A DNA stretch of 64,000 bases from Aeromicrobium erythreum (GCA_036946185.1 JAQIJP010000018.1:6349-70348), one strand, 5' to 3'; numbered from the stretch's first letter, positions 15,438 through 64,000 are shown. Made by a program: numbers and translations. The notes: generated by a model from the sequence alone, not told the origin.

Positions 15438-15500
15438 GCCGTTCATCCTACGGGTGTCCATCGTCACAGCCGCTCACGTGGTGCGGCCCCGGACCGTCGG

Positions 15501-15530: not shown

Positions 15531-15578
15531 TCCGCTCCCGCCGGGAGCCGGGACCACGGTCCTGGAAGGAGCGCCACC

Positions 15579-16073: not shown

Positions 16074-16148
16074 CCCACGAACCACCCCGTCCGCCCCGCC
16101 TCTCCCTCCCTCCCTGGCGGGCCGGGCGGGGTCGTGCGTCCTGCGGTC

Positions 16149-16913
16149 TCAGGCGTCCCCGCGACGCTCGGCGATCTCGGTGATCTGCTCGCCGACCTCC
16201 TGGTCGATGGCCTCGACGAGCTGCGCGCGGAAGATGCCGAGCGTGACCTGCTGGGCGACCGGCAGCAGCCGCTCGATCGCGTCGATCATCGGGTCCCACT
16301 GGTCCTCGGGCAGGCCGGCCGCGACGAACGGCTCGACGAGCTCGTCGGCGACGCGCCGCACGAACAGGTCGGCGACGGCCCGCAGGTGTCCCTGGATCTC
16401 GGGGAACAGGCCGATGATCGTCGCGGGCTCGAGGCCGAGCGAGACGGCCGACGCCCCGGCGCGCACGATCGACGGCTGCAGCAGCCGCACGTGGTCGTGG
16501 TCGTCGTCGATCCACTCGGCGAGCCCGAACGCGGTCAGGCCGTCGATGAGCGAGTCGTCGCGGTCGACCCCGGCGAGCGCCGCGAGGGCGTCGCGGGTCA
16601 TGACCTCGGGGTCGACCTGCCGGCGCGGCTCGTCGAGCAGCTGCAGCAGGTCGAGGGCGTGCGCGGGGGCGCTGCGCGGGCTCGCCGCGATCGCGTCCTC
16701 GACCGCCGACAGCGTGTAGCCGCGGTCGAGGAACTCGCGGACCAGGACCAGGCGCTGCAGGTGCGACTGGTCGTAGTAGCCGGTGCGGCCCTCCAGCCGC
16801 GGCGGGTCGATCAGGCCGCGGCCGGCATAGGCGCGGACGTTGCGCACGGTCATCCCGGCGCGGGCGGCGAGCTCGTCGATCGTGAACTCCTCGACCGCGT
16901 CCGCCTCCGCCAT
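16149..16913 (-). CDS. MerR family regulator
   Basis: FTIDELAARAGMTVRNVRAYAGRGLIDPP. Confidence 0.88.
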   Translation of the reverse strand: MAEADAVEEFTIDELAARAGMTVRNVRAYAGRGLIDPPRLEGRTGYYDQSHLQRLVLVREFLDRGYTLSAVEDAIAASPRSAPAHALDLLQLLDEPRRQVDPEVMTRDALAALAGVDRDDSLIDGLTAFGLAEWIDDDHDHVRLLQPSIVRAGASAVSLGLEPATIIGLFPEIQGHLRAVADLFVRRVADELVEPFVAAGLPEDQWDPMIDAIERLLPVAQQVTLGIFRAQLVEAIDQEVGEQITEIAERRGDA

Positions 16914-16992
16914 GGGACGCATCATAGGCGCCGTCGCGGTCGACCCGCCGCGTCTCGCGGCGCCCTGCCCCCGGTGCGGGCATCATGGGCCC

Positions 16993-17541
16993 ATGGACAC
17001 GTTGCGAGGGCGTCTGCTCGTCGCGACCCCGGCGATCGAGTCGGGGCCGTTCTGGCGGTCCGTGGTCTACCTGCTGGACCACGACGAGGACGGGGCGCTC
17101 GGCGTCATCGTCAACCGGCCCCTGCCGTCCGACGTCGAGGACGTCCTGCCGCAGTGGAGCCGCTTCGTGAACGCCCCCGACTGCCTGTTCGACGGCGGAC
17201 CGGTCGCGATGGACTCGGCGCTCGCCGTCGGGGTGTCGCTCGAGGGCAGCGAGCCGGAGGGCTGGCGACCCATGACCGGCCGCGTGGGCCTGGTCGACCT
17301 GGACGGTCCGCCGCCGGCGGCCGGCGTGCTGCGCGGCCTGCGGGTGTTCGCGGGCTACGCGGGCTGGTCCGGGGGACAGCTCGAGGGCGAGCTGGAGGAG
17401 GGCTCGTGGGTCGTCGTCGACGCCCGCGACGAGGACCTCGTGTCGCCCCGCCCGGAGGACCTGTGGCGCGACGTCCTGCGCCGCCAGGACGACGACACCC
17501 GCTTCTGGACGACGTTCCCGGCCGACCCGCACGTCAACTGA
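16993..17541 (+). CDS. YqgE/AlgH family protein
   Basis: GRLLVATP, GALGVIVNRP, GGPV, FAGYAGWSGGQLEGEL. Confidence 0.92.
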   Translation: MDTLRGRLLVATPAIESGPFWRSVVYLLDHDEDGALGVIVNRPLPSDVEDVLPQWSRFVNAPDCLFDGGPVAMDSALAVGVSLEGSEPEGWRPMTGRVGLVDLDGPPPAAGVLRGLRVFAGYAGWSGGQLEGELEEGSWVVVDARDEDLVSPRPEDLWRDVLRRQDDDTRFWTTFPADPHVN

Positions 17542-17573
17542 CCGGCGTCCGTCGCGGCGTCTACGATGGGCCC

Positions 17574-17843
17574 GTGGGATTCTTCGGACGCGGCACGCAG
17601 ACCGTCACGGACGAGCGCACCGACCTGCGCCCCGAGGCGGGTGATCACGAGCGGTTCAGCCACTACGTCCCGCGCGAGACCCTGACCGAGGCGATGGTCA
17701 TGGGCACGCCGGTCGTGGCCCTGTGCGGCAAGGTCTGGGTGCCGAGCCGCGACCCCCAGCGCTTCCCGGTGTGCCCGGAGTGCAAGGAGATCTGGGAGGG
17801 CATGGAGTCCGGCGACGAGGGGGACGACTCCTCCGATGCCTAG
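17574..17843 (+). CDS. DUF3039 family protein
   Basis: GDHERFSHYV, ALCGKVWVPSRDP, PVCPECKEI. Confidence 0.88.
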   Translation: MGFFGRGTQTVTDERTDLRPEAGDHERFSHYVPRETLTEAMVMGTPVVALCGKVWVPSRDPQRFPVCPECKEIWEGMESGDEGDDSSDA

Positions 17844-19533
17844 CCGGCGCCTCAGAGCCTGGCAGCAGGAGGCGTTCGACCTCTACCGGAGCAAGCAGCC
17901 GCGGGACTTCCTCGCGGTGGCGACGCCCGGTGCCGGCAAGACCACCTTCGCCCTGACGATCGCCGCCGACCTCCTGGAGCGCGGCCTGGTCGAGCGGGTC
18001 GTCGTCGTGACCCCCACCGACCACCTCAAGACCCAGTGGGCGCTGGCCGCGTCCGGCCTCGGCATCAGCCTCGACCCCGCGCTGGGCGGCTCCGGCGTGC
18101 TCGGTCGCGAGTTCCGGGGGTTCTGCGTCACCTACGCAGGCCTCGGGGTCAACCCGAACGCCTACCGGGCCCGGATCGAGGCGCGCCGCACGCTCGTGAT
18201 CCTCGACGAGGTCCACCACGCCGGCGACGCGCTGTCGTGGGGCGAGGCGGTGCGTGAGGCGTGCGACCCCGCCGAGCGTCGGCTGGCGCTCACGGGCACG
18301 CCGTTCCGCTCCGACCAGAACCCGATCCCGTTCGTCACCTACGCGCCGCAGGACGACGGCACGAAGCAGAGCGTCGCCGACTACTCCTACGGCTACGGCC
18401 GGGCCCTGCGCGACGGCGTCGTGCGTCCGGTCCTGTTCATGGCGTACTCGGGCGAGATGCAGTGGCGCACGCGGGCGGGCGACGAGGTCGCGGCCCGGCT
18501 CGGCGAGCCCCTTACCAAGGACCAGACGGCGCAGGCGCTGCGGACCGCGCTCGACCCGCAGGGCTCGTGGATCCCGACCGTCCTGGCGGCGGCGCATCGT
18601 CGCCTCACCGAGGTGCGCCGCGACATCCCGGACGCCGGCGGGCTCGTCATCGCCACCGACCAGGACTCCGCGCGGGCCTACGGGGCGATCCTGCGCGACG
18701 TCACGGGCGTGGAACCGACCGTCGTGCTGTCCGACGAGACCGGCGCCAGCGCCCGGATCGCGGAGTTCTCGGCCAGCATGAGTCCCTGGCTCGTGGCTGT
18801 CCGCATGGTCAGCGAGGGCGTCGACATCCCGCGGCTCGCGGTCGGCGTCTACGCCACCACGACCTCCACGCCGCTGTTCTTCGCCCAGGCGATCGGCCGC
18901 TTCGTGCGCGCCCGCCGCCGGGGCGAGACCGCCTCGGTCTTCGTGCCCAGCGTGCCGGGGCTGCTGACCCTCGCGGGCGACCTCGAGGCCGTGCGCGACC
19001 ACGTCGTCGGTCGGCCGGTCAAGGACGAGGACGACCTGTTCGCCGCCGAGGCCGAGCTGCTGGCGCGGGCGCAGCAGTCGGAGTCCGCCTCGGCCGAGGA
19101 GCTCGGCAGCTACCAGGCGCTCGGCAGCGAGGCGGCGTTCGACCGCGTCGTGTACGACGGGGCCGACTTCGGCGGCGAGGACGTCGCCGAGGACGAGCTC
19201 GACTTCATCGGCATCCCGGGCCTGCTCGACCCCGACCAGGTGGCCGAGCTGCTGCGCGCGAACCGGTCGCGCAAGGCCAAGGGCGGTGGCAAGGCCGCCG
19301 CCGTCGACGAGCAGGCCGAGAAGGACGCGCTGTTCGAGCGCCGCTCGGACCTGCGGCGTGAGCTCAACGGGCTCGTCGGGGCCTGGCACCACCGCACCGG
19401 CCAGCCGCACGGCGTCACCCACGCCCAGCTGCGCAGCGCCTGCGGCGGACCGCCCGCGGCCCAGGCCACCGGCGACCAGCTGCAGCAGCGCATCGACCTG
19501 ATCCGCCGCTGGGCCCTGCGCGCCTCGGGCTGA
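17836..19533 (+). CDS. DEAD/DEAH-box (SF2) helicase
   Basis: LRAWQ, ATPGAGKT, DEVHH, LTGTP, VSEGVD, QAIGRFVR. Confidence 0.92.
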   Translation: MPSRRLRAWQQEAFDLYRSKQPRDFLAVATPGAGKTTFALTIAADLLERGLVERVVVVTPTDHLKTQWALAASGLGISLDPALGGSGVLGREFRGFCVTYAGLGVNPNAYRARIEARRTLVILDEVHHAGDALSWGEAVREACDPAERRLALTGTPFRSDQNPIPFVTYAPQDDGTKQSVADYSYGYGRALRDGVVRPVLFMAYSGEMQWRTRAGDEVAARLGEPLTKDQTAQALRTALDPQGSWIPTVLAAAHRRLTEVRRDIPDAGGLVIATDQDSARAYGAILRDVTGVEPTVVLSDETGASARIAEFSASMSPWLVAVRMVSEGVDIPRLAVGVYATTTSTPLFFAQAIGRFVRARRRGETASVFVPSVPGLLTLAGDLEAVRDHVVGRPVKDEDDLFAAEAELLARAQQSESASAEELGSYQALGSEAAFDRVVYDGADFGGEDVAEDELDFIGIPGLLDPDQVAELLRANRSRKAKGGGKAAAVDEQAEKDALFERRSDLRRELNGLVGAWHHRTGQPHGVTHAQLRSACGGPPAAQATGDQLQQRIDLIRRWALRASG

Positions 19534-19581
19534 GCGCCCACGCGCCGGGTCCGTCGGCGTGGCACCCGCGCGTCGCCTACC

Positions 19582-20541
19582 GTGGCGCTCGTGAGCCTCC
19601 CCCTGAGCACGCGGGTCTTCGGGATCCTCGAGCACGCGACGTCCCGCCCCGTCGAGCAGGAGACGGACTTCCCGCGCCGACGCTCGGCCCGGCTGGCCCT
19701 GCAGCGCTCGCCGGTGGGGCAGTGGCTGTTCGGGACGAGCGACCGCACGGTCCTGACCGACGTCCGGACGGTCGACGTCGACGGGCGGGCCTGCCGCATG
19801 ATCGTGCACCGGCCGATCGACGCCCAGGGGGCGCCGATCGTGCTCAACCTGCACGGCGGTGGCTGGGTCCAGGGCAACCCCGAGCAGTCGGCGTGGTTCG
19901 CGAGCCGCGTCGCCGCCCGCGCCGGCGTCGTCGTGGTGTCGCCGGACTACCGCCTCGCGCCGGAGCACCCCTTCCCGGCGGCCGTCGACGACACGTGGGC
20001 GCTGCTGCAGTGGGTCCACGCGCACGCCGAGGAGCTGCACGGCGACGCCGACCGGATCGCGGTCATGGGCGACAGCGCCGGCGGGGGACTGGCCGCGACG
20101 GTCGCGCTGCAGGCCCGCGACGCCGGGTCGCCGAGGATCGCCGCCCAGGTGCTGATCTACCCCGGCGTCGAGGCCTACGACCGCTGGCCCTCGGAGGACG
20201 AGTTCGCGGACGCTCCGGTCCTGACGTCGGCCAACATGCGCGCCTTCGTGCGGCTCTACCTCGGGGAGTCCTACGGGACGCGCGACTGGCGGGCCTCGCC
20301 GATCCGCGCGGCGTCGCACGCGGGGGTCGCGCCGGCGTTCGTCGTCGTCGCCGACCACGACCCGCTGCGCGACCACGGCCGCCGGTACGCCGAGACGCTG
20401 CGCCGGGCAGGGGTGCCGGCCACGCTGCGCGAGTACCCGGGCTGGCACGGCTTCATCAGCCTGCCCGGCGTCCACCCGGCGGCACGCGACGCCGTCCGCG
20501 ACGTCGCCGACTTCCTGACGACGACCTTCGGGCGAGGCTGA
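19582..20541 (+). CDS. Alpha/beta hydrolase (HSL-family esterase)
   Basis: HGGGW, DYRLAPEHPFP, GDSAGG, DPLRD, HGF. Confidence 0.92.
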   Translation: MALVSLPLSTRVFGILEHATSRPVEQETDFPRRRSARLALQRSPVGQWLFGTSDRTVLTDVRTVDVDGRACRMIVHRPIDAQGAPIVLNLHGGGWVQGNPEQSAWFASRVAARAGVVVVSPDYRLAPEHPFPAAVDDTWALLQWVHAHAEELHGDADRIAVMGDSAGGGLAATVALQARDAGSPRIAAQVLIYPGVEAYDRWPSEDEFADAPVLTSANMRAFVRLYLGESYGTRDWRASPIRAASHAGVAPAFVVVADHDPLRDHGRRYAETLRRAGVPATLREYPGWHGFISLPGVHPAARDAVRDVADFLTTTFGRG

Positions 20542-52053: not shown

Positions 52054-52230
52054 CGGCTTCCCCCTGGGTCGGACGGTCGAGCGCGACCGATCGAACCAGG
52101 TCGGCGGTCGCGGCGGCAACTCCCGGTCGTGCGCGACCGATGTCCGATCTGGGCCTGTCCAAAACCGTCTTGACCGTCCGCGCGGTCCGGTGCAGGGTTC
52201 CTGCATCGACTGGCTGGATCGGGGGACGTC

Positions 52231-52746
52231 ATGGAGTCGTCGACGGATCTGTCGACTCGCGTGCGCGAGGCCGTGCGCGAGCGTCGGCTCGACCCACGCA
52301 CCCAGGTCGACGAGGTGCGCCGGCTCGCGCTCGACGCGGTCGCCGAGCACGAACGCCGTTCGCTGACCGGCGCGGTCCGGCCGCTCGACGAGCCCGAGCA
52401 CGTGGTCGGCCAGATCGTCGCCGACGTCAGCGGCTTCGGCCCGCTCCAGGCCTACCTGGACGACCCGACGGTCGAGGAGCTCTGGATCAACGCGCCCGAC
52501 CGCGTCTTCGTCGCGCGCCAGGGGGTCCACGAGCTGACCCCGACGGTGCTGACCGCCGAGCAGGTCCGCGACCTCGTCGAGCGGATGCTCCAGTCCTCCG
52601 GCCGTCGGCTCGACATCTCGCAGCCGTTCGTCGACGCGACCTTGCCGGGGGGCCACCGGCTGCACGTCGTGCTCGACGGGATCAGCCGCGGCTTCTCGGC
52701 GGTCAACGTCCGCAAGTTCGACAGACTCGCTGTTGACGTGGCTTGA
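52231..52746 (+). pseudogene. cpaF: 5' part of a CpaF/TadA pilus ATPase gene, interrupted after ...AVNVRKF
   Basis: GFGPLQAYLDDPTVEELWIN, RRLDISQPFVDATLPGGHRL, NVRKF; stops before any Walker A motif; composition changes at about 52720. Confidence 0.88.
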
Positions 52747-52761
52747 ACTGCATAAACGTGC

Positions 52762-53271
52762 TCACTCGGATTCCTCAGTCCGCATCGAGTCCGCATCAAT
52801 CAGACCTGCACCTGCCGCCGCTCGCCGGATGAAGGGTCTAGCCCGCGCATCGAGTCGCGCTAGTTCCGTCTCCAGTTGCCGCCACTGCGCGGCATTCGCC
52901 GGGACCAGTTCGAGGTAGTACTCAGTCGTCCCGTCGGGTCGCCTGTCTTTCTTCGCGCGCGATCCGATCGGCATGCCCCTCGTGATCCCTCCGCGCGAGG
53001 ACCCTACGACGCCCCAAGTCGAATGGATGAGTTGATGCCTTCTTTCCAGTGAGACCTCGCACTCTTGAAGCCACTGGGCCAGATCTACGGAGCCGGTGCT
53101 CTTGGCGGTCTTCGCGAGTTTTTCTCGGGCGACTGATGGTCGGGTCATGAGCTGTGTGACGTTGGCCTTGTTGCCGTCAAGAAGGACGTGCAGCATGCAT
53201 AGGCTGCTCTCAAGCGCTGTCGCGGCGATAGCGACGCGACCGATGGCTGCGTAGTGCTCTTCAGTCAGCAT
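52762..53271 (-). CDS. Hypothetical protein, HEPN-like
   Basis: AIGRVAIAATALE helix and an RxxxxH motif (RHQLIH); start overlaps the integrase 3' end. Confidence 0.6.
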   Translation of the reverse strand: MLTEEHYAAIGRVAIAATALESSLCMLHVLLDGNKANVTQLMTRPSVAREKLAKTAKSTGSVDLAQWLQECEVSLERRHQLIHSTWGVVGSSRGGITRGMPIGSRAKKDRRPDGTTEYYLELVPANAAQWRQLETELARLDARARPFIRRAAAGAGLIDADSMRTEESE

Positions 53272-54358
53272 GTCGGACCTCCGTCGCTGCTGCTCCAAGC
53301 ACGCTGTCGACGGCGGCCCGGGTCTGGTCGTCAGAGTCTGGCCAGAGGTGAGAGTAGGTGTCCAGGGTTTCCTTGGCGGACGCGTGGCCGAGCCGAGCCT
53401 GCACGACCTTCACGCTCTCGCCGTGACGGATGAGCAGTGAGGCGTAGTAGTGCCGCAGGTCGTGCAAGCGCGTGCCGGGTGGAGCGCCCGCCGTCGAGGC
53501 GGCAGCACGGAACGCTCGCGTGACGTAGTCGCGGTTCAGCATCGACCCGTCGGCGGCCGTGAACAGCATGTCGTGCTGGCCGGTGCCGTAGGTCTCCAGG
53601 TGCCGGGCGAGTGCGTCGATGACGACCTGGGGGAGCGGCACGCTCCGGTAGCCCGACTCCGACTTCGGGGGGCCCCGAACGTGTGCGGCCCGCGTCAGCA
53701 ACAGCTGCTGGTCGACGCGAAGGGTTCGGCGCAGGAAGTCCACGCGGTCTAGCACGAGGCCGGCGGCCTCGCCGGGGCGAAGGCCGGTCCCGGCCATCAG
53801 AGTGATGAGCGCGCGCCAGTGAGGCGGCATCGCGTCGGCCAACCGATGCACGACCCCGGTCTCCAGTGGCACGATCGTCGGCCGGCGGACCGAAGGCAGC
53901 TTCACGCCCTCGGCCGGGTTCACTCCGATGATGCGGTCGACGTGGGCAGCCTTGAAGACGGACCGAGCATGCTGGAACGTCACCCGGACGGTCGACGGGG
54001 CGAGCGACCGCGTCATGTCGTGAACCCAGGCCTCGAGCTCAGTGCGACGGATGTTGGCGATCGGACGATCCCCAAACCGCGGGAACGCGTGGACCCGGAG
54101 CGCGCTGTTCACGGCCGCGGTCGTGTTCGCGCGATGGATGCGGGTGGTCTGCCACTGCGTGGCGTACTCGCGGAACGTGATGCGTCCGGCCCTCGGGTCG
54201 ACGTAGGCGCCGGTCAATACTGAGGCCGTGACCTCGTCGAGCCAGCGCTGCGCGTCGACCTTGCGGTCGAAGTGACGGGCGTGCTCCTTGCCGGTGTCAT
54301 CGCGATACCTAGCGCGCCAACGGCCGTTGGGTCGCTTGGCGATGTTGCGGCTAGCCAT
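53261..54358 (-). CDS. int: Tyrosine recombinase / phage integrase
   Basis: Arm-binding WRARYRD; TGLRPGE, PKS, LHDLRHYYAS, LGHAS, TLDTYSHLW. Confidence 0.95.
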   Translation of the reverse strand: MASRNIAKRPNGRWRARYRDDTGKEHARHFDRKVDAQRWLDEVTASVLTGAYVDPRAGRITFREYATQWQTTRIHRANTTAAVNSALRVHAFPRFGDRPIANIRRTELEAWVHDMTRSLAPSTVRVTFQHARSVFKAAHVDRIIGVNPAEGVKLPSVRRPTIVPLETGVVHRLADAMPPHWRALITLMAGTGLRPGEAAGLVLDRVDFLRRTLRVDQQLLLTRAAHVRGPPKSESGYRSVPLPQVVIDALARHLETYGTGQHDMLFTAADGSMLNRDYVTRAFRAAASTAGAPPGTRLHDLRHYYASLLIRHGESVKVVQARLGHASAKETLDTYSHLWPDSDDQTRAAVDSVLGAAATEVRHAD

Positions 54359-55094
54359 CGTGATCACCGTGGCGCAGATGCTCAAGCAGTTCCAGGGCTT
54401 CCGGTGTCATCGCGCCGCCGCGCCGGCCGTGCCCGGAACTCGTAAAGAGGCGCGGATCGGACTTGTGACGTGCCCAGGTGAGGAGGTCCCGAAGAGAGGA
54501 CCGGCTGATACCGAGGTCGGCGGCTAGTTCGTCCATGGTCACATCGCTCGCGTAGGCGGCTTCGATCGCAGCGAGGGTCTCGAGCTTCTCTCGGAGCGAA
54601 AGCTTCGGGGGCCGGCCGACCTTCTGATTGCTCTCGAGCAGCATCGCCACCTGTGCTGGCTGGAGGCGCTCAGCCTGGCGGCTGCGGCTCACGGCCGAAC
54701 GGAGGCCGCGCAGCAGCTGTGACTCGGACGCTTCTTCGAAGACGTACCGCGGCATGCCTCTTCCGCTGGCTGCAGCAGGTGGCAAGCGATCGCCGCCGGT
54801 CATGTCGTCGAACATCAACCGGGCCAGCTGGGTGTGCATGACATCGCCTGCTGCGCCGGCCACGTCCTCGACTCGCCTGACGCGTAGATCGACGCAGGTG
54901 GGGTCGCCCGAAGCGTTAGGACGGAACAGGCTCACGACAATCCAGCCGGGATGTGGCTCGCGGCCGCCGGCTGACGGACTCGCCGTCGATTGGCGCTGAA
55001 TCCGAGCTCGTGCGGCTCGGTCGTAGACCAGCGCCCAGGCTCCGAGCATGTCGTCGGGCCCTTCCAAGTAGGTCGGAACAAGCGCGTCAGGCAT
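54351..55094 (-). CDS. Hypothetical regulator with a C-terminal HTH
   Basis: VGRPPK and TMDELAADLGISRSSLRDLL; coupled to int and divergent from the excisionase. Confidence 0.65.
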   Translation of the reverse strand: MPDALVPTYLEGPDDMLGAWALVYDRAARARIQRQSTASPSAGGREPHPGWIVVSLFRPNASGDPTCVDLRVRRVEDVAGAAGDVMHTQLARLMFDDMTGGDRLPPAAASGRGMPRYVFEEASESQLLRGLRSAVSRSRQAERLQPAQVAMLLESNQKVGRPPKLSLREKLETLAAIEAAYASDVTMDELAADLGISRSSLRDLLTWARHKSDPRLFTSSGHGRRGGAMTPEALELLEHLRHGDHDG

Positions 55095-55104
55095 GACGGG
55101 CCAG

Positions 55105-55174
55105 GAAATGTCGTGCGGTCATTTCTCAACTCTAGACATGAGTCGTGAAACTCGTCAACGGGAACACCCGTTGA
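55105..55174. promoter_or_regulatory. Divergent control region with inverted repeats
   Basis: GAAATG-N9-CATTTC (55105-55125); TCAACGGG-AACA-CCCGTTGA (55155-55174) abutting the RBS of the excisionase gene. Confidence 0.55.
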
Positions 55175-55187
55175 AAGGACCCGAATC

Positions 55188-55373
55188 ATGGCGGAGTACA
55201 TGACCACCGAAGAGGTGGCTGAGTTGGCGCGGACCAAGCCAGAGACCGTTCGCTACTGGCGGCACATCAGAAAGGGGCCGGCAAGCTTCAAGGTCGGCCG
55301 GCGTGTGCTGTACGCCAGAATCGACGTCGAGAAGTGGCTCGAGGACGCGCGAGCAGCGGCGGTGTCGGGGTGA
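55188..55373 (+). CDS. Excisionase/AlpA-like HTH protein
   Basis: YMTTEEVAE, TVRYWR, GPASFKVGRRVLY. Confidence 0.9.
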   Translation: MAEYMTTEEVAELARTKPETVRYWRHIRKGPASFKVGRRVLYARIDVEKWLEDARAAAVSG

Positions 55374-57274
55374 TCGAGACCGACGAAAGCCGCCCCGGCC
55401 AGGAGACCGAGGCGGCACAGACGTTTGGCGGCGTCGACAGCATCCTAGGCGAACCTCCTCGCTTGAAGGCGTACCTCGATGAGGACGAGGACCAGCTCTG
55501 GATCTGGTGCACGCACGAACGCCTCTGGCACCGGCACGGCCGAGGCGATGGCCACCGGACCGCGCACTGCCGTTGCGAGCACAGTCCCTACCACGCGGTC
55601 GGATACGAGTTGGTCGAGGTTGGGCCGCTGACCGATGAAGTCCTCGCGCAGCATCGAGAGACGAGCTGGATCGACGGCTGCCGCCCGAGGAACTGCCGCG
55701 TCCGTCGCCGAGAGGTGCGGGTCGCGCGACAGAGTCCGCACCTGCTGCCGGCGCCAGACGCTCCGCTCGAGGTAGCGAGGGCCGTCGCGCGCAGCTACGC
55801 AGACCCGACCTACATCGAGGACCTCGCGGCCGAGGACGACATGCTCGCCCTTTTCGACTCCCCGAACGCGCCTGCTTGGGTGCCGCGAGGTGCGATGCCG
55901 TACTCCGTGAGCATGCACGGCCAGCTGCCGCTGCGGTTCTGGCGCGGGCAGTGGATGCGGTGGCAGAAGAGTCACTGGAGCGAGCTCAGCGACGACTCCT
56001 TCAAGTCCGAGCTCTACGAGCTGCTTGGCGGCGCGTCCTTCGAGAAGACCAAGCCAGACGGCAGCAAGAAGGCGCTGCCGTGGAACCCGAACCGACGCAC
56101 CGTCTCCGAGCTGCTGGCGGCGCTGGAGGCGATCGCGCTCATCCCGCCAGAGGTGGATGCCCCGAGTTGGCTCACCCTGTCGGGATCGTCGCGGATGGTG
56201 GCGTGCGCGAATGGGCTGCTCGACCTGTCGACGCGCCAGCTCCACGACCATGACCCGGACTGGTTCAACCTCGTCGCCGTGCCCTTCGACTACGACGAGC
56301 ACGCCCCGCCGCCGGCGCGCTGGCTGCAGTTCCTGGACCAGCTCTGGCCGGGCGATCCGCACGCCATCGCCGCGCTGCAGGAGTGGTTCGGCTACGTCCT
56401 CTCGGGCCGCACGGACCTGCAGAAGCTCTTCCTGCTCATCGGTCCGCCGCGCTCGGGCAAGGGCACGATCGTGCGCATCCTGCAGGCGCTCGTCGGTCGC
56501 GGGAACTACACCGGACCGACGCTCAACTCCCTCGGCACCAACTTCGGCCTGCAGCCCCTGATCGGCAAGCCGCTCGCCGTCGTCGCCGACGCTCGCCTCA
56601 GCGGACGAGACACCCACGTCGTCGTCGAGCGCCTGCTGTCCATCAGCGGTGAGGACACGCTGACGATCGATCGCAAGTACCGAGATCCGTGGAGCGGCCG
56701 GCTCCCGACCCGGATCATGGTGCTGAGCAACGAGCTGCCCTACTTCGGCGACGCCTCGGGGGCGATCGCCACTCGGTTCATCGTCCTGACGCTCCAGACG
56801 TCGTGGCTCGGTCGCGAGAACATCGGACTCGAGCCGGAGCTCAAGGCTGAGCTCCCGGGGATCCTCTCGTGGGCACTCGATGGACTCGAGCGGCTCCAGG
56901 TCAACGAGCGATTCACCGAGGCGGCATCCGCCACCGATTCGGTCCTGGCCATGCACGACAGCGCCTCACCAATGTCAGCGTTCATCAGGGACCGGTGCGA
57001 GGTCGGCGCCGGCCACGAGGTGGCCGTTCGGACGCTGTTCGATGCGTGGCGCGGTTGGTGCCTCGACAACGGCCGGGACAAGCCAGGCAGCTTGCAGACC
57101 TTCGGCCGCTCGCTCCAGGCCGTGCTCCCGCAGGTCAAGGTCACGCGCCCGCGCGACGAGGCCGGCAATCAGGTGCGCACCTACACCGGTGTGCGTCTGA
57201 GTCGCCCTGAGTCGCGACACATCTCATTGTCAGCTCAGATCGCCCCTCAACTTCCCCTCGGAGGCTCCCAGTGA
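55370..57274 (+). CDS. P4/D5-family (SF3) helicase with a Cys/His-rich N-terminal domain
   Basis: ANGLLDL, LQEWFGY, Walker A GPPRSGKGT, ISGED, LSNELP; C-terminal winged-helix-like LFDAWRGWC. Confidence 0.88.
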   Translation: MIETDESRPGQETEAAQTFGGVDSILGEPPRLKAYLDEDEDQLWIWCTHERLWHRHGRGDGHRTAHCRCEHSPYHAVGYELVEVGPLTDEVLAQHRETSWIDGCRPRNCRVRRREVRVARQSPHLLPAPDAPLEVARAVARSYADPTYIEDLAAEDDMLALFDSPNAPAWVPRGAMPYSVSMHGQLPLRFWRGQWMRWQKSHWSELSDDSFKSELYELLGGASFEKTKPDGSKKALPWNPNRRTVSELLAALEAIALIPPEVDAPSWLTLSGSSRMVACANGLLDLSTRQLHDHDPDWFNLVAVPFDYDEHAPPPARWLQFLDQLWPGDPHAIAALQEWFGYVLSGRTDLQKLFLLIGPPRSGKGTIVRILQALVGRGNYTGPTLNSLGTNFGLQPLIGKPLAVVADARLSGRDTHVVVERLLSISGEDTLTIDRKYRDPWSGRLPTRIMVLSNELPYFGDASGAIATRFIVLTLQTSWLGRENIGLEPELKAELPGILSWALDGLERLQVNERFTEAASATDSVLAMHDSASPMSAFIRDRCEVGAGHEVAVRTLFDAWRGWCLDNGRDKPGSLQTFGRSLQAVLPQVKVTRPRDEAGNQVRTYTGVRLSRPESRHISLSAQIAPQLPLGGSQ

Positions 57275-57389
57275 CCAGGTTCAAGAGGTCTAGTACGGGA
57301 GACATTAGGAAAAGTCGCGTCTCAGAGCGGCTCAGGGGCGAGCCGCCGGCGAAGCAATGGGCGGCGAAGCAGCGATCGGCAGGCGCATC

Positions 57390-57683
57390 GTGAGCGACGA
57401 CTTCCGGCCACAGCGCCCCGTGCAGCCGCTTCACGAGCTGCTCAAGCACATCGCCGAGCTCGAGGCCGCCGGCCGGTCGGTGCCGTGCGTGAACCCGATC
57501 GTCGGGCACTACTGGCTGTCGGAGGACCGCGAGTTCCAGGCGGCGGCCGTGGCGGGTTGTCAGAGCTGCCCCGCGCTCCAGGCGTGCGCCGCGTACGTCG
57601 ACCGCAACCCCGAGCCCGGGGGCGTCTGGGCGGGCCGGCCCCCTGTGCATGGGACTCAGAGGAGGCGCGATGCCGACGGCTGA
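57390..57683 (+). CDS. WhiB family Fe-S regulator
   Basis: C..CQSCPALQAC and GGVWAG. Confidence 0.85.
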   Translation: MSDDFRPQRPVQPLHELLKHIAELEAAGRSVPCVNPIVGHYWLSEDREFQAAAVAGCQSCPALQACAAYVDRNPEPGGVWAGRPPVHGTQRRRDADG

Positions 57684-58077
57684 CGGCGCGTACCTGGTCC
57701 GCCCGGGCTCGGTCATCGTCGAGCCACACCTGGCGGGCTTCGCCTGGGACGCGGTGCGCCAGCACGCAGAGAGACGACGCCGCAACGGATCGCGCCTGCG
57801 ACCCGATGAGGAGGCCCTGCTGCAGGTCCTGCGACGGGCCGCCGGCGAGCACCTCCGCGCGACGCCGAACGGACATCGCGGACACGTTTCTCGGTCAGGC
57901 GCGGACATGGCCCCATCGTCAGAACTGACCACCAAGCAAGCCGCAGAGGAGCTCAACGTGAGCACACGCCACTACCGACGACTCGCCAACGCGGCGAACG
58001 TCAGCCCACTCGGCCGCAACCGGTGGCACCGCGACGACCACCTCGCGATCACCGCCCACTGGAAGGACGCCTCATGA
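57670..58077 (+). CDS. Hypothetical protein with a C-terminal HTH
   Basis: SD GGAGG; LTTKQAAEELNVSTRHYRRL. Confidence 0.75.
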   Translation: MPTADGAYLVRPGSVIVEPHLAGFAWDAVRQHAERRRRNGSRLRPDEEALLQVLRRAAGEHLRATPNGHRGHVSRSGADMAPSSELTTKQAAEELNVSTRHYRRLANAANVSPLGRNRWHRDDHLAITAHWKDAS

Positions 58078-58808
58078 CGATCACCCCCCTGCCCCCGATC
58101 AACGAGAACCCCCTGATCACCACCGCTCACCAGATCCGCCAGCAGTACACCGACGAGATCGCTGTGGCTCGCGCCCGAACCGACCTCGCCGACCTGCAGA
58201 AGGCCGAAGCGATCATCGACTTCTGGAGGCGCTGCCGCGACGCACTGCGCAAGGCCGAGGCCGAGCTCCGCCAGGAGTACCGAGACCAGCACGACGCCAT
58301 CAACGAGCTGTTCCCCTTCGGCCCCGACAACAGCGCGAGCAACCCGGCGGACCGCACCGTCATGCAGGAGGCCTTCCACCGCCAGCTCGACGTCGCACGC
58401 GAGGCGCAGACGCTCGCGGCCAACGACCCCTCACGTCGACAGTCGTTGCTCAACGACGCGGTCGCGTTCGACGACGACACGCTGCTGCGCGCGATCCTGA
58501 CCGCCGCCTCCCAGGCCCGCGACGACAAGTTCCTCCGCGGCTGGGCGAGCGGCCGGCCCGAGTTCGAGGGGCTGCTGCCGGAGCTGCTGCGCGTCCGTGA
58601 GTTCCTCATCGGCCTGTCCGCCGAGGCTCTCATCGCTCACCAGGTCTTCGCCCCGCTCGAGGAGCCGACGCGTGAGGTTGAGGACCTACCTCGCCTCGAA
58701 CGTGCACGTGACGCCGCCGAGGCCGAGATGGCAGCGCAGCGACGTGGTCGCCCGCAGGTCGTCGATCCCAACCTCCCGACGTTCGGGGTGGCCGGGGGAG
58801 TGCGCTGA
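58074..58808 (+). CDS. Hypothetical alpha-helical protein
   Basis: ATGA overlap, SD GAAGGA, GC3 bias. Confidence 0.75.
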   Translation: MTITPLPPINENPLITTAHQIRQQYTDEIAVARARTDLADLQKAEAIIDFWRRCRDALRKAEAELRQEYRDQHDAINELFPFGPDNSASNPADRTVMQEAFHRQLDVAREAQTLAANDPSRRQSLLNDAVAFDDDTLLRAILTAASQARDDKFLRGWASGRPEFEGLLPELLRVREFLIGLSAEALIAHQVFAPLEEPTREVEDLPRLERARDAAEAEMAAQRRGRPQVVDPNLPTFGVAGGVR

Positions 58809-59254
58809 TGGCGACGCGCGAGGCGAGTGGCCGTCCGCAGCCCAGCAACTGGCGCACCACCGAGCGCCGCATCCTCGAGCGCGACGAGTACCGCTGCTAC
58901 CTCGGCTCCCACGACGCGACCACGGTCGACCACATCGTGCCCGTTGCTCGAGGCGGCAGCCACGACGACGACAACCTGGCCGCCATCTGCCAGCCGTGCG
59001 CCGAAGATCGGGCATTCCTGGCGCACCGCGTCCCAGGCGGAGCTCTGACAGCCGTTGACCTTGCCCTGGTTGATCTTTGGAGTCGAGCCTGCGCTCGAGT
59101 GCTGACCGTGGCGGAGGTCCTCGACGAACACCGGAGACTCCTCGGCGGACGCGTTGACGCCGAGACCCCCTCCCCCCACCTCCGGCCGTGCGGTTCACCT
59201 AGCGGTGCAGATTCAGCTAGGTCTTCGGCCGCCGATTTTCTCGGAGACCGCTGA
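58808..59254 (+). CDS. HNH endonuclease-like protein
   Basis: ILERDEYRC, TVDHIVPVARGGS, DNLAAICQPC. Confidence 0.82.
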   Translation: MATREASGRPQPSNWRTTERRILERDEYRCYLGSHDATTVDHIVPVARGGSHDDDNLAAICQPCAEDRAFLAHRVPGGALTAVDLALVDLWSRACARVLTVAEVLDEHRRLLGGRVDAETPSPHLRPCGSPSGADSARSSAADFLGDR

Positions 59255-59256
59255 GC

Positions 59257-59697
59257 ATGCGTCTGTGCTCCGAATGTGACGAGAAGTTCGCCTGGTCCCG
59301 GCCTGAGGGGCAGCGCGGACGCCCGCCCGGATTCTGCTCGGACCGTTGCCGCGCTGCCGCGCGCGCTCGGCGACGGCGCAAGGGTCCAGCGCCTGTCGAG
59401 GTGCGCCGTGCGGGGTCCCGCAAGGGAGGCCAGGCCCGCTGGCAAGGCGTGCCCGCAGCCGAGCGGACGGCGGCCGCGCGTGCGGCAGCGCTGAGTCGGG
59501 GCACACCGGAACGCCGCGCTGAGATCGCAGCCCGCCAGGCCGAGCTCGCCCTCAGACGCCAGGCGCCGTGCCCGTTCTGCGGCGAACCGGTCGGAAGCGC
59601 CCGCCGGGTCACCTGCGCTCGAATCGACTGCACCCTGGCCCGCCGAGCTGAGCGAGCGCGCACCCGTCACGCGGCAGCGAGCGAGGCCCGGGCATGA
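59257..59697 (+). CDS. Basic double Zn-finger hypothetical protein
   Basis: CSEC...GRPPGFCSDRCR and CPFCG...TCARIDC. Confidence 0.65.
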   Translation: MRLCSECDEKFAWSRPEGQRGRPPGFCSDRCRAAARARRRRKGPAPVEVRRAGSRKGGQARWQGVPAAERTAAARAAALSRGTPERRAEIAARQAELALRRQAPCPFCGEPVGSARRVTCARIDCTLARRAERARTRHAAASEARA

Positions 59698-60005
59698 GCG
59701 CGGAGGAGATGCGTGAGCGCCTGATCCCGCTCTTCGAAGGTCTGCGCGGGGCGATGGTCACTGTCGAGGCGACCGGCGATCCGACGATCGCCTTCACCGA
59801 GTTCATGACCGTGTTCAGCGACGACCTCAACGAGGCGCACACACGCGGACCCGACGCTGTGCTGCGCACGTACGAAGGCATCTTCGGCGTGCTGGGCAGC
59901 GCCGTCTTCAACCTTGTCGGGCTCGCCGCAGCTCTCGACGGAGTGCCGCCCGACCAGCTGCTCGAGCAGGTCCTCATCACCCTGAAGGAGAACCGAGATG
60001 CCTGA
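59694..60005 (+). CDS. Hypothetical acidic protein directly upstream of the TMP-like gene
   Basis: ATGA overlap upstream; overlaps the TMP-like start. Confidence 0.7.
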   Translation: MSAEEMRERLIPLFEGLRGAMVTVEATGDPTIAFTEFMTVFSDDLNEAHTRGPDAVLRTYEGIFGVLGSAVFNLVGLAAALDGVPPDQLLEQVLITLKENRDA

Positions 60006-62180
60006 CGACGACATCATCGTCGGCTCAGCCGCCGTCGAGATCAACGCGACCACCCGCGGCTTCATCGCGGACCTGCGCGCGCAGATCGAGCCGGGCGTGC
60101 GGCAGCTCGCGGAGAACCTCGGCAAGGTCCTCGAGGACAAGATTGCCGCCGGCATCGCGAAGGGCACGGGCCAGGGGTTCACCACGGCCGAGCCGCTCGC
60201 GAAGCAGAAGGGCAAGCAGTCCGGCGAGGGCTTCGGCGGCGAGTTCGGCCGCCAGGCCCAGGCCCGCATCCGCGCGGGCCCTCGCCGCGCTGCCCGAGGC
60301 CAAGATCGGCGTGGCCAAGACCGAGGCCGAGCAGAAGCTCAAGGACCTCCGCGCCGAGATCGCCTCCCTCGGCGACAAGCGCATCGGCGTCGACATCGAC
60401 GCGGCCGAGGCCAAGGCGAAGATTCTCGAGCTGCAGGCCGAGCTCGCCGCGCTCGCCGCGCGATCGCCGGACATCGACGTCCGCGTGAACACCGCGGCGG
60501 CCGCGGCCGAGCTCGCCGCCTTCAGCGCCGCGATCGACCCGCTCCTCGACGCCGGCAGCGGACTCCCCGCTCTCGGCAGCGCCGGCAGCCGAGCTGCGGC
60601 TGGTACGTCGAGCGTCGCCGCGTCCTTCGGTGCGACCGCCGTGGCCGGCGCCGGACTGCTGGCAGTCCTCTCGCCCGTCCTCGGAGCACTCGGCGGCATC
60701 ATCGCCGCCCTCGGCGCCCCGCTCGGCGCCGCCACCCGCCGGCGGCACGCTCTACGCTCTGCTGGCCGGCAAGGCGATCAAGGACACGAACAAGGTCGCC
60801 AAGCAGATCGACGAGCTCCGCAAGAAGGCCGACACCCTCCAGGACCCGAAGGCAGCCCAGGCCGCCCGCGACCAGGCCAAGGCCCTCGAAGACTCGCTCA
60901 CCGGCCCGCAGAAGCGGTTCCTCGAGGCCAAGTCCGAGCTCTCCAAGGCCTTCGGCGAGTTCATGGACGGCCCCGCCGGCGACGCGGTGTTCGACCCGAT
61001 CGTCTCTGGCATGGAGCTGCTCGAGAAGATCCTGCCCAAGGTCAGCCCGCTCCTGGTCGAGACCAGCGACGCCGTCTCCGACCTCCTCGACAGCCTCGCG
61101 AAGAAGGCCGGCGGCTCCGACGAGTTCTTCGAGAGCCTCGGCAAGCTCGCAGGCGACGGCATCCGCGATGGTGGCCGCACGCTCGGCAATCTGGCGGGCG
61201 CGATCTCGTCGGTTCTGGAAGCTGGTTCCGACACCGGCGCCGCGGCCATGGACTCCATCGCCGACGGCGCGGAGCGGCTCTACAAGTACCTCAAGTCCCC
61301 GGAAGGCCAGGAGCAGCTCGAAGAGTTCTTCACCTGGCTCGAGGAACACGGTCCCGGCATCGCCGAGAACATCGGAGACCTGGCCGAGTACTTCGTGAAC
61401 TGGATGATCAGCGCCGCGCCGGTCGGTGAGCAGCTGCTCGACCTCGCGGGCGATGCCGCGAAGTTCGGCACCGCGATCACCAAGGTCGTGCGTCCTGTCT
61501 ACCGCTTCGCCGACGCCATCGACGCGGCGAAGGCGTTCACGTTCCCGCTTCGCCTCGGACTGTCCGGAATCATCGAGGCGGCAGCCGGCGTGATGACGGT
61601 CTTCGGCAAGATGCTCGGCGCACTGGCGCGCATCCCAGGCGACAAGTTCGAGTGGGCGCGCGAGGGCGCACGAGAGATGGACAAGGCCGCCGCCGATGCG
61701 CGCGGACTGGCGAAGGACGTCCGCGCTATCCCCGGCAAGAAGACGATCTTCGTCAAGGCGGAGACCGCCGAAGCGAAGCGCGCCATCAAGAACCTCATCG
61801 ACGCGGCCGAGTCCTGGGTGGTGAACCTGCCGATCGTCGGCGAGAAGGCCGGCGGCAACGCCAAGGGCACCAACAACTGGCGCGGCGGCTGGTCCTGGGT
61901 CGGCGAGGAGGGCCCCGAGCTGATGCGTCTGCCCGCGGGCACGCAGATCCGCTCCAACCCCGACTCGATGGCCATGGTCCGCGCGTCGGCACCCGCTCCG
62001 GCAGCCGTCATGGCCGCCACTGCCGGACCGTCCCTCGGCTTCGACCTCGGCCAGCTCGAGCCGAGCCTGCACGTCATCTCGGCCGAGACCAACCTCGACA
62101 CCGGCACGATCGAGGTCCTCGTGGAGGCCCACCTGGACAACCTCGTCGACTTCAACGACCAGCAGGATCGGTGGGAGTGA
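59998..62180 (+). CDS. Tape-measure-like protein (about 726 aa once two +1 frameshifts at about 60277 and 60736 are corrected)
   Basis: N-terminal IVGSAAVEINATTRGF; Ala/Gly-rich helical body; C-terminal NAKGTNNWRGGWSWVGEEGPEL. Confidence 0.75.
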
Positions 62181-62229
62181 GCGATGGGTCGTCTAGAGGG
62201 GACTGTCCCCGGGCGGTCCTAACCTTGAC

Positions 62230-62700
62230 ATGTACCCACCGAGCAACTCGCCGCTTCACCTGGAGGTCGGCCAGAGCACGTGGACGCCGCCGGCCGTCGC
62301 CTACGACGCGATCTGGTCGCTGACAGGTGACGAACCGGTCGTCGCGTCGTGCTGCCAGCGCACGCCCGAGGGCGCTAGCGGGGACTTCATCGCGTTCGCT
62401 GTCACGCCGACCCGGCTGGTCCGCGTGGTCGTAGAGGGCGAAGACGCTGATCGGGGCGAGCTCATCGCGGCCGACTCGTACTGGCTCGCTGACTCTCGGT
62501 CGATGCACGTTCTCCGCGTCCGAGAGCGGCGAACGGGTGAAGGCCGCGGTTGGAGCGCCGACTATGAGGTCGTCTTCGGCGACGTGCCCGTAGAGCTCCC
62601 GCGTGCAACGGAGTCTGGATTTGACGACGAGCGTCGTCGGATTGAGCTGATCACCTCGGCTGTGCGGGACGCCCGTTGTGGCGGAGGCGCTGCCTCGTGA
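62230..62700 (+). CDS. Hypothetical cargo protein
   Basis: ORF whose stop overlaps the next start (GTGA). Confidence 0.55.
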   Translation: MYPPSNSPLHLEVGQSTWTPPAVAYDAIWSLTGDEPVVASCCQRTPEGASGDFIAFAVTPTRLVRVVVEGEDADRGELIAADSYWLADSRSMHVLRVRERRTGEGRGWSADYEVVFGDVPVELPRATESGFDDERRRIELITSAVRDARCGGGAAS

Positions 62701-62903
62701 AGGTCACCGCCTACGCCACCCGCTCCGACGGCTGGTGGTCCGTCACCGTCCCTGAGGTCGACGGCGCCCTCACACAAGCTAGGAGTCTCGAGGAAGTGCC
62801 CGGCATGGTGGCCGATGCTGTCTCGCTTCTGGAGGACGTCTCCGTCGACGACGTCGAGGTCACGGTGGTGCAGGTCGCCGCGGCAAAGGCCGAAGGCTTG
62901 TGA
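62697..62903 (+). CDS. HicB-like antitoxin domain protein
   Basis: RSDGWWSVTVPEVDGALTQARSLEEVPGMVADAV. Confidence 0.75.
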   Translation: MKVTAYATRSDGWWSVTVPEVDGALTQARSLEEVPGMVADAVSLLEDVSVDDVEVTVVQVAAAKAEGL

Positions 62904-63235
62904 CGAAGTCCAGCCGCCGGCGCCGGCCACCCACCCCTGCGCAGCTGGCGCGCAAGGAGGCCCGGAAGCAGGCCGGCCTCCAGGCCGCGAAGCTCGAGCC
63001 CCTGCGGCCCGTGAAGGTGACGAGCCGGAAGTCGTCCGACGGTGCCCCGTTGCTCGAGGACGGTCAGGTCTACGCGACGCGGGGCGGGACCGTATTCCAC
63101 CCCGGCTGGTGCGGAACCGTCGGCGACCTCTGGGACAGGCACCCGACGTCGCTGCTCGTGGTGCTGCGGTCCGAGGTCGGCAGCCGCCGGGAGTGCCAGA
63201 ACTGCGCCTTGTACCCGCTGACCGGCAACTTCTAG
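62900..63235 (+). CDS. Hypothetical protein with a possible metal site (H..WC...CQNC)
   Basis: GTGA overlap; VYATRGGTVFHPGWC, ECQNC. Confidence 0.55.
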   Translation: MTKSSRRRRPPTPAQLARKEARKQAGLQAAKLEPLRPVKVTSRKSSDGAPLLEDGQVYATRGGTVFHPGWCGTVGDLWDRHPTSLLVVLRSEVGSRRECQNCALYPLTGNF

Positions 63236-63297
63236 GCGGTGTCGCACGATCCGCCGTTTCACTGCGGCCCGGGCGTAGCGAGTCCTACCCTGCTCGG

Positions 63298-63870
63298 ATG
63301 AGCGAGAACGACGAGGCTGCCCAGCCGCAGCCCGAGGCCGTCACCCGCGCCTGCCGGAAGTGCAGTGCCGTCAGCACCACCGAGGGCGCCTTCTGCCCGC
63401 AGTGCGGCACGCCGTTCATGCGCGGCCAGAACAAGAAGGGCCGGCGCAGGCTCGTCGCGTTGGTTGCCGCGATCCTCGTCCTCGCACTGGCCGGCGGAGG
63501 CGCGGCGTACGCGTTCAAGGAGAAGTCCGACCGTGACGCGGCGGCAGCCCAGGCTGATCGTGAGCGGGCCGCCAAGCGCGCCGACGACGCGAAGCGCGCG
63601 GAGCGCCAGGAGTACGTGAAGTTCCTCGAACAGACCATCACCAAGGACGCGAAGAAGGACTACGACCCGGACGGCCTCATCGACAAGAAGGTCAAGGAGA
63701 CCTCCTGCACGGCGACCGGCGGGGGATCCGTCGACGACCTCACCGCCCTGACGGGCACCTTCGAGTGCATCGCGGCGCACACGATCAAGGACGGCACGAT
63801 GACCGGCTTCCGCTACTCCGGCACGATCGACTGGAACACCGGAGACGTCACCTGGAAGCTCGGAGGCTAG
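63298..63870 (+). CDS. Zinc-ribbon membrane protein
   Basis: CRKC...FCPQCG, TM segment, external domain with 2 Cys. Confidence 0.8.
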   Translation: MSENDEAAQPQPEAVTRACRKCSAVSTTEGAFCPQCGTPFMRGQNKKGRRRLVALVAAILVLALAGGGAAYAFKEKSDRDAAAAQADRERAAKRADDAKRAERQEYVKFLEQTITKDAKKDYDPDGLIDKKVKETSCTATGGGSVDDLTALTGTFECIAAHTIKDGTMTGFRYSGTIDWNTGDVTWKLGG

Positions 63871-63935
63871 ACCGGCGTCGAGTGCCCGCCAAGTACCCCA
63901 ATAGATCGACTACTGAGAAGACCTAGGACCCCAGG

Positions 63936-64000
63936 ATGCCCAAGCTCACGATCGAGTTGCCGAGCAACAACAAGATCAACAAGGCCGGCAAGTTCCTCCG
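63936..64000 (+). CDS. Start of an ORF (MPKLTIELPSNNKINKAGKFLR), possibly a RelA/SpoT-domain protein; truncated by window
   Basis: S-x3-I-N-K-A-G-x2-L resembles the N-termini of mobile small alarmone synthetases; only about 21 codons visible. Confidence 0.4.
   Translation, partial: MPKLTIELPSNNKINKAGKFL

Follow-up and report, generated by a model that had tools for sequence, protein, structure and literature searches.

A genomic island whose sole virion-type gene encodes a tail tape measure protein (TMP) lies at the right end of a 64,000-nucleotide stretch of Aeromicrobium erythreum DNA (GCA_036946185.1, JAQIJP010000018.1:6349-70348; hereafter, the window), where it interrupts the host gene cpaF. 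The island, of which at least 12.4 kb are visible, is an integrative and self-replicating element that belongs to a conserved actinobacterial family. Our preferred reading, which we hold tentatively, is that it is a phage satellite that puts its own TMP into the tail of a helper phage. Aeromicrobium belongs to the Nocardioidaceae (Propionibacteriales), and the window corresponds to contig C18:6349-70348 of an assembly of 2.44 Mb in 65 contigs that is 64.9% complete. Gene calls were based on lists of open reading frames (ORFs) with third-position GC profiles and on Pfam and PHROG scans (Table 1), and coordinates are those of the window unless another contig is named.

As deposited, the TMP gene is spread over three frames, with +1 shifts at two places, a GGG run near 60276 and a CCC run near 60735. 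Logan contigs from two sequencing runs of the sample from which the assembly itself probably derives were placed on the locus at low depth (about 3.5), and one contig of 11.6 kb was found to span 53690-65179 with 0 mismatches and exactly three single-base deletions (60276, 60735, and 64352). Removal of the three extra bases yields an uninterrupted TMP of 726 amino acids (aa) and a RelA/SpoT-domain protein of 248 aa, and the homolog P0005 (725 aa, itself uninterrupted) aligns colinearly over all three TMP frames. Because the differences in the Logan contig fall exactly at the frame breaks, the frameshifts are most likely assembly errors and not signs of decay, and the TMP is most likely encoded by one intact 726-aa ORF. 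A pseudogene was considered and rejected, since the indels are not present in the independent contig of the same sample. Thus, the "TMP-like gene" of an earlier note on this DNA is a genuine TMP homolog, while its status as a single ORF emerges only once two extra bases are removed. Left uncorrected, such single-base errors would cause both the TMP gene and the toxSAS-like RelA/SpoT gene to be mislabeled as pseudogenes. The three insertions fall within 4.1 kb of deposited sequence, and the assembly may hold further errors that mimic pseudogenes.

The closest relative of the TMP is P0005, with which it shares 45% identity in the best-aligned stretch of 363 residues. On its 3.8-kb contig, the P0005 gene immediately follows genes for a major tail protein and two tail assembly chaperones. 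The C-terminal motif of the TMP is also present in a 713-aa TMP encoded in another Aeromicrobium genome by one of about twenty consecutive ORFs on the same strand, an arrangement that resembles the structural operon of a prophage. Searches with the C-terminal 480 residues matched 155 phage records (all eight among the matches listed are annotated tape measure genes) and 20 plasmid records (all six among the matches listed are Clostridioides difficile plasmids of about 32 kb). Close relatives of the TMP were sought in 61 related genomes as well as in collections of genomes and of viral contigs, with distant TMPs as the only result. Judged by these homologies, the island TMP is a genuine homolog of siphophage TMPs and of phage origin.

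Directly upstream of the TMP gene lies an ORF for an acidic 103-aa protein, and an ORF of 95-104 aa holds the same place in all five related elements described below; we regard the acidic protein as a likely partner of the TMP and a candidate chaperone. An exhaustive HMMER search with this protein retrieved only itself and two marginal matches, and its neighbors in the atlas are unnamed hypothetical proteins. Its AlphaFold2 (AF2) model had no match in the Foldseek viral library at E values up to 0.001; the AF2 model of orf244, with a predicted local distance difference test (pLDDT) score of 51, was not used in the fold search. Complex prediction for the 103-aa protein with two pieces of the TMP gave a score of 0.00, which is a verdict neither for nor against binding.

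The integrase, xis, and primase-helicase genes give the island its own integration and replication modules, a feature that satellites share with the integrative and conjugative elements of actinomycetes (AICEs). The order given in the earlier note (integrase, a helix-turn-helix (HTH) gene, xis, helicase, WhiB, HNH, zinc finger, acidic ORF, TMP, cargo) was borne out by Pfam and PHROG matches and by the ORFs themselves, with one qualification: the second leftward gene stands where it was placed, and its HTH identity is weakly suggested by the matches in Table 1. An HTH_31 gene holds the same position in related elements, and a promoter-like site lies beside the gene at 55158-55129 on the minus strand. 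From xis to the TMP gene, the ORFs overlap or are separated by gaps of at most about 82 bp, and therefore no head or tail-tube gene can sit there, as had been claimed; from the HNH gene to the TMP gene, they abut or overlap by 1-8 bp. The third-position GC content of the TMP gene is 0.90, the highest among the element genes profiled.

Pfam and PHROG scans of the visible 12.4 kb, which exclude the unassembled right end, recovered no capsid, portal, terminase, tail tube, or lysis gene, and scans of all ORFs with the same databases recovered none of the packaging and capsid-interference families (small terminase, Ppi, Cpm) of phage-inducible chromosomal islands (PICIs). The complete head, tail, and lysis modules of an intact prophage are likewise not there, and accessory-type genes follow the TMP gene directly. 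The claim that cargo follows the TMP without distal-tail genes accordingly holds for the visible 3 kb, beyond which the right end is unassembled.

Alignment with the uninterrupted cpaF of Aeromicrobium sp. Root495 shows homology as far as 52720, at about codon 281, and this point marks the left junction; an attL core-like sequence, GTCCGCAAGT, lies at about 52709-52718. A sister element in Nocardioides psychrotolerans occupies the same cpaF codon and carries the 11-bp core CATCCGCAAGT at both of its ends. In A. erythreum, cpaF homology picks up again at codon 324, at position 6119 of contig C42 (cpaF part C42:6119-6754), and the 125-bp middle piece of the gene, proximal to Walker A, is not in the assembly. 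Searches of the genome for attR or an att repeat, by blastn-short with the left junction and by the exact core pattern, found none with a cpaF continuation. The attR site, the right end of the island, and the 125-bp piece of cpaF lie in the unassembled gap between C18 and C42. Low-GC ends of contigs C13, C20, C48, and C61 were considered as possible continuations of the island and set aside, since no virion or transfer homolog mapped there; joints between contigs placed on the locus, which have sides of 20-24 bases and derive from short unrelated contigs, were not accepted as excision junctions.

The arrangement around the TMP gene recurs far from Aeromicrobium. A single-sequence search with the orf261-family protein, which is encoded upstream of the HNH gene, retrieved the query alone, and a two-sequence profile that included a 31% identical homolog from Streptosporangium sp. 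G11 was needed to find the family, with members in Streptosporangium, Sphaerisporangium, Nonomuraea, Actinomadura, and Microbispora. In five of five Streptosporangiales genomes, the orf261-family gene stands two or three genes upstream of a TMP gene. These five relatives carry a recombinase at one end (a tyrosine recombinase in four, a serine recombinase in Microbispora). After it come a leftward gene, identified as HTH_31 in two of them, a gene for Xis or an HTH protein, a helicase, which is either a D5-type primase-helicase or DnaB, and regulators. Later in the elements stand a roughly 150-aa ORF and the orf261-family gene, after which some have a gene for 232-248 aa, and then the 95-104-aa ORF and the TMP gene. 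The ORF of about 150 aa holds the position of the island's 142-aa ORF in all five, and its G11 copy is weakly MerR-like; HNH genes weakly similar to that of the island are found in the G11 and Nonomuraea elements. The TMPs span 769-1078 aa, with PF10145 in three and strong PHROG TMP matches in G11, and DUF2637-like, DUF6907, and HNH genes come after them. Among the called genes of the five relatives, no capsid, terminase, or portal family was reported.

The G11 copy is a complete element of about 16.9 kb, bounded by exact 27-bp repeats and located at the 3' end of a host gene; BLAST found no FtsK-like gene in it. Its length, like the 12.4 kb or more of the Aeromicrobium island, lies within the roughly 7-20 kb expected of a satellite. 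Neither the orf261 family nor the DUF2637-like protein was matched by any of 50,697 phage records or of 72,556 plasmid records, and within those collections they thus occur only in integrated chromosomal elements. The earlier note had proposed a search for head-less clusters in other Actinomycetota; because the same cassette is present in five Streptosporangiales genomes, the head-less, TMP-carrying design is, as far as gene order and homology indicate, conserved across two orders and not the product of a one-off deletion.

Relatives defined by the integrase and the helicase lead in a different direction. Integrases 66-67% identical to that of the island are found in Aeromicrobium and Nocardioides elements, and genes for terminase, portal, protease, and capsid are part of the elements whose integrases are closest. 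The nearest (66%), the element of N. psychrotolerans CGMCC 1.11156 at the same cpaF site, measures 16,454 bp and encodes an HNH-large-terminase fusion of 730 aa, a portal-protease-major-capsid fusion of 949 aa, a major tail protein, and an 876-aa TMP, with no recognizable tail tip or lysis genes; Nocardioides soli has a similar element. The N. psychrotolerans element resembles the island in its integrase, its insertion site, and the order integrase, regulator, xis, helicase, HNH, TMP, and accessory genes, and differs from it in having the terminase, portal/capsid, and major tail protein genes, an AAA_25-type helicase, and an unrelated TMP. It also contains an ORF that runs from inside the element over attR into the C-terminal part of cpaF (384 aa).

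Helicase relatives at 57% identity occur in three other Nocardioidaceae genera and share only the integrase, the helicase, and sometimes WhiB with the island. A small element in a Propionibacteriales metagenome-assembled genome (L016, G159:C77, 959-8145; about 7.2 kb) is bounded by imperfect 28-nt repeats with host genes after it and encodes an integrase, a 57% identical primase-helicase, WhiB, and, as its only virion gene, a lone HK97-type capsid gene of 449 aa; another helicase relative at 57% carries a large terminase. PHROG scans of the unassigned ORFs in the relatives L014, L015, L016, and L029 yielded nothing. The helicase family is common in Streptomyces, in elements of other layouts. 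Because the nearest helicase and integrase elements carry capsid, terminase, or portal genes, the lineage of the island trades parts with phages.

The satellite reading draws on four points: the TMP is phage-derived and intact, the closest relatives by integrase and by helicase carry genes for phage morphogenesis, an HNH gene is present, and the cassette recurs. Under this reading, the island would be kept integrated by the leftward regulator until infection by, or induction of, a helper phage brings about its excision by the integrase and Xis and its replication by the primase-helicase. The rightward, translationally coupled late operon would then be turned on, so that the orf261-family protein, the HNH endonuclease, the zinc-ribbon protein, the acidic 103-aa protein, and the TMP are produced. 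The small upstream protein may keep the 726-aa TMP soluble, and the TMP would replace, or compete with, that of the helper siphophage during tail assembly. The island would exit in particles composed of helper heads and of tail parts assembled around its own ruler, and assembly of the helper's tails might be impaired as well, although such sabotage is conjecture. The genes downstream of the TMP (the toxSAS-like RelA/SpoT pair, the HicB-like ORF, and the zinc-ribbon membrane protein) would serve as defense or addiction cargo.

A close functional precedent is available. The Vibrio cholerae elements PLE11, PLE1, and PLE4 (PLE, phage-inducible chromosomal island-like element), satellites of phage ICP1, are integrated and self-replicating, lack capsid genes, and encode their own TMP with an adjacent small gene, as the island does (PMC12987554). 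In 2026, they were shown to encode a tail assembly chaperone in addition to the TMP and to build chimeric tails in which the PLE TMP takes the place of the helper TMP (PMC12987554), so the earlier note's statement that PLEs have been reported to supply their own TMP was correct. No sequence relationship between the island and the PLEs was seen. The helper of the PLEs is a lytic myovirus, and they additionally encode a baseplate hub and capsid-remodeling and packaging factors (PMC12987554), whereas the island has a tyrosine recombinase, a siphophage-type TMP, and, in the 103-aa ORF, a chaperone candidate.

The EPIPs, 11-kb satellites of the Mycolicibacterium aichiense prophage HerbertWM, are likewise actinobacterial and small, encode a TMP that has been proposed to be supplied to tails, and lack tail-tube and lysis genes; unlike the island, they carry a small terminase, a head-tail adaptor and stopper, a scaffold, a major capsid protein, and a serine integrase (PMC12822802). 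PICIs and capsid-forming PICIs (cf-PICIs) share with the island an integrase at one end, divergent regulators, an AlpA/xis-like gene, a primase-helicase, and a small size (PMC10085698), and tmp genes are carried by cf-PICIs (putative ones, in some) and PLE-like elements (PMC12987554). The island differs from PICIs in having no small terminase, Ppi/Cpm-type, or capsid module, in being actinobacterial, and in lying inside a protein-coding gene. Satellites with their own TMP have therefore already been published, and the concept itself is not new. The literature searched describes no actinobacterial family with a TMP as the only virion gene and a cassette of orf261-family gene, small ORF, and TMP gene, with possible ties to conjugation genes.

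Several results weigh against the satellite reading. Contig C18 stops 1183 bp past the end of the window and leaves the right end of the island unassembled; no helper phage was identified, nor was a small terminase subunit or a cos/pac site; and searches of all 65 contigs for capsid (PF05065), large-terminase ATPase (PF03354), and portal (PF04860) families had no match, a weak negative given that the genome is 65% complete. The 103-aa protein has no detectable sequence or fold similarity to the tail chaperones searched. The TMPs of the five Streptosporangiales relatives are too diverged from the island TMP for BLAST, and the link to them is made by the orf261 family and gene order. To the question, raised in the earlier note, of whether homologous loci are intact prophages, the answer is divided: the cassette relatives lack capsid, terminase, and portal genes, whereas the nearest integrase relative has terminase, portal, protease, capsid, and tail-tube genes. 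Genes for DUF2637-like or DUF6907 proteins are present in five of five cassette relatives and a GntR gene in two; in the Sphaerisporangium element, the GntR gene sits beside an FtsK_SpoIIIE-like gene of 596 aa, with DUF2637 and DUF6907 genes also present. Finally, the element of Streptomyces sp. LUP47B (3800-19900) joins a DUF6907 gene, an FtsK-like protein of 816 aa with Walker A, a primase-helicase of the same family as that of the island, a serine recombinase, and a TMP-like protein of 1442 aa that contains an NlpC/P60 motif and whose first approximately 160 residues resemble the island TMP.

These last observations count for what is the main and serious rival, namely that the island is an AICE-type integrative conjugative or mobilizable element in which a phage-derived TMP and its small partner serve cell-to-cell DNA transfer and no virions are made. 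The TMP would then act as an envelope-penetrating or peptidoglycan-remodeling conduit with a TraB-like translocase, and the genes for transfer would be located in the part on the right that the assembly lacks. An integrase, an xis gene, and a prim-pol or D5-type replication protein also form the AICE backbone, and AICEs of the pSAM2, SLP1, and pMEA300 type resemble the island further in their size (9-24 kb) and their occurrence in Actinomycetota. The layout of integrase, regulator, xis, and primase-helicase, which the earlier note took as that of PICI-type satellites, is thus not specific to them, and some of the TMP-cassette relatives are AICE-like in their FtsK/TraB-like, GntR, and DUF2637 genes. 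The absence of the orf261 family and the DUF2637-like protein from the phage records fits this rival too, but both are equally absent from the plasmid records. We nevertheless consider an AICE-type element somewhat unlikely. The visible part of the island has no Tra (FtsK-domain) gene, and no FtsK/TraB-like, DUF2637, or DUF6907 gene was found there or in the rest of the 65% complete assembly: the FtsK search brought up nothing beyond the housekeeping FtsK, a protein resembling EccC, and a single weak match in DNA of host GC content, and the DUF2637 and DUF6907 searches had no match, a weak result in that the controls matched nowhere either. Moreover, BLAST shows no FtsK-like gene in the complete, repeat-bounded Streptosporangium element, the relatives of the TMP are phage TMPs, and the relatives nearest by integrase and by helicase have genes for capsid or terminase and none for transfer. 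In a term search, two AICE surveys (PMC2440964, PMC3218068) had zero occurrences of "tape measure". An intermediate idea, on balance improbable, is that a widespread actinobacterial family of integrative elements has domesticated a phage TMP, the small partner, and the orf261-family protein as a DNA-passage device, used for TraB-associated conjugation, or for conjugation when no phage is present and for tail hijacking when a helper is.

Two further explanations involve a conventional prophage, and both are less likely than an AICE-type element. The island could have decayed from a small temperate phage similar to the 16.5-kb N. psychrotolerans element, having lost its head and tail-tube genes and retained a functionless TMP; its gene order is indeed that of the N. 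psychrotolerans element minus the head and tail-tube block, several of its genes are sequence orphans, and no exact copy of it was found elsewhere. Decay is, however, quite improbable for an element in which all ORFs are intact after removal of the assembly errors, the HNH, zinc-ribbon, 103-aa, and TMP ORFs are abutting or overlapping, the TMP gene has the highest third-position GC content of the genes profiled, and the same head-less cassette is kept in five distant genomes. Alternatively, a larger, oddly ordered but otherwise ordinary prophage could have its head and tail genes hidden in the unassembled stretch between C18 and C42. The early end of C18, where the independent Logan assembly breaks as well, the 65% completeness of the genome, and the missing attR and cpaF piece leave space for such genes. 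Head and tail-tube genes generally precede the TMP gene in siphophages, though, and they do so in the siphophage-type relatives examined, while no room exists upstream of it here. With 3 kb of accessory-type genes already following the TMP, no capsid, large-terminase, or portal match on the 65 contigs, and complete relatives that lack these genes, we judge a hidden set of virion genes to be very improbable.

The distinction between a satellite and a conjugative element matters for what the family could reveal. The long-standing view was that satellites interfere with capsids and packaging alone, and TMP-based tail manipulation has been shown only in 2026, in Vibrio PLEs (PMC12987554). If the satellite reading is true, an Actinomycetota family with a TMP as its sole virion gene would mean that the tail strategy is old and broad. 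Should the TMP instead work with TraB-type transfer genes, it would represent a new component of the poorly understood double-stranded-DNA conjugation of actinomycetes, and a shared DNA-passage device would provide a mechanistic link between AICE conjugation and phage satellitism. Complete copies are present in Streptosporangium sp. G11, Sphaerisporangium rhizosphaerae, Nonomuraea sp. SMC257, Actinomadura litoris, and Microbispora sp. SCL1-1, and isolates of Streptosporangium, Nonomuraea, Actinomadura, and Microbispora would offer culturable test systems.

Table 1. Features of the cpaF-borne island and its left flank, in window coordinates.
Feature	Coordinates	Strand	Basis or remark
cpaF N-terminal fragment (host Tad-pilus ATPase)	52174..52746	+	tblastn and alignment to intact cpaF of Aeromicrobium sp. 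Root495
178-aa ORF between junction and integrase	52762..53298	-	ORF call; no Pfam match at E up to 0.01
Tyrosine integrase	53261..54385	-	PF00589, E 9e-23
Putative regulator, 247 aa	54351..55094	-	Weak HTH: DUF134/HTH_10, E 0.004-0.01
xis, excisionase/AlpA-like HTH_17	55188..55373	+	PF12728, E 2.9e-12
D5-type (SF3) primase-helicase	55334..57274	+	D5_N, DUF5906, Pox_D5; PHROG DNA primase, E 1.5e-67
WhiB-like protein	57357..57683	+	PF02467, 26.4 bits (cut-off 23.6)
142-aa ORF, weakly excisionase/MerR-like	57649..58077	+	phrog_66, E 4e-4
orf261-family protein, all-helical, 244-261 aa	58074..58808 (alternative start 58023)	+	Cassette marker; 31% identical homologs
HNH endonuclease	58808..59254	+	PF01844, E 1.5e-9
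Arg-rich double zinc-ribbon protein, 146 aa, isoelectric point (pI) 11.6	59257..59697	+	Two pairs of CxxC-type motifs; partial phrog_1271, E 2e-6
Acidic four-helix protein, 103 aa, pI 4.25	59694..60005	+	AF2 model, pLDDT 73; stop overlaps TMP start
TMP, 726 aa after correction	59998..62180	+	PHROG TMP families, E 1e-8; colinear with P0005
Cargo ORF, 156 aa	62230..62700	+	ORF call; no Pfam or PHROG match
75-aa ORF, weakly HicB-like	62676..62903	+	PF15919, E 0.003, below curated cut-off
Cargo ORF, 111 aa	62900..63235	+	ORF call; no family match
Zinc-ribbon protein, one hydrophobic segment, 190 aa	63298..63870	+	Weak DZR matches
RelA/SpoT-domain (toxSAS-like) gene, start within window	63936..64000, on to 64683	+	PF04607 on both halves

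Two minor observations concern the cargo and the insertion site. The halves of the RelA/SpoT gene and the next ORF, of 86 aa (63936-64956), match phrog_4773 at successive profile positions, and the RelA/SpoT protein and the 86-aa ORF together look like a split version of a fused phage toxSAS toxin-antitoxin. On the far side of the interrupted cpaF, C42:1-6100 is a second, different island of 58-63% GC, which encodes an Mrr_N/HNH_2 nuclease, AbiTii, a rolling-circle Rep of the HUH type (REP_ORF2-G2P), and a large serine recombinase that begins at a distance of 22 bp from the cpaF junction. A recombinase 97% identical to that of C42 belongs to an island of Aeromicrobium stalagmiti that is the only one in cpaF there, at about codon 325-327, and the N. 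psychrotolerans element with the 66% identical tyrosine integrase is likewise the only one in its cpaF, at codon 281. Because each island is found alone at its site in another species, cpaF has here most likely taken up two insertions independently, one at about codon 281 and the other 125 bp away at about codon 325.

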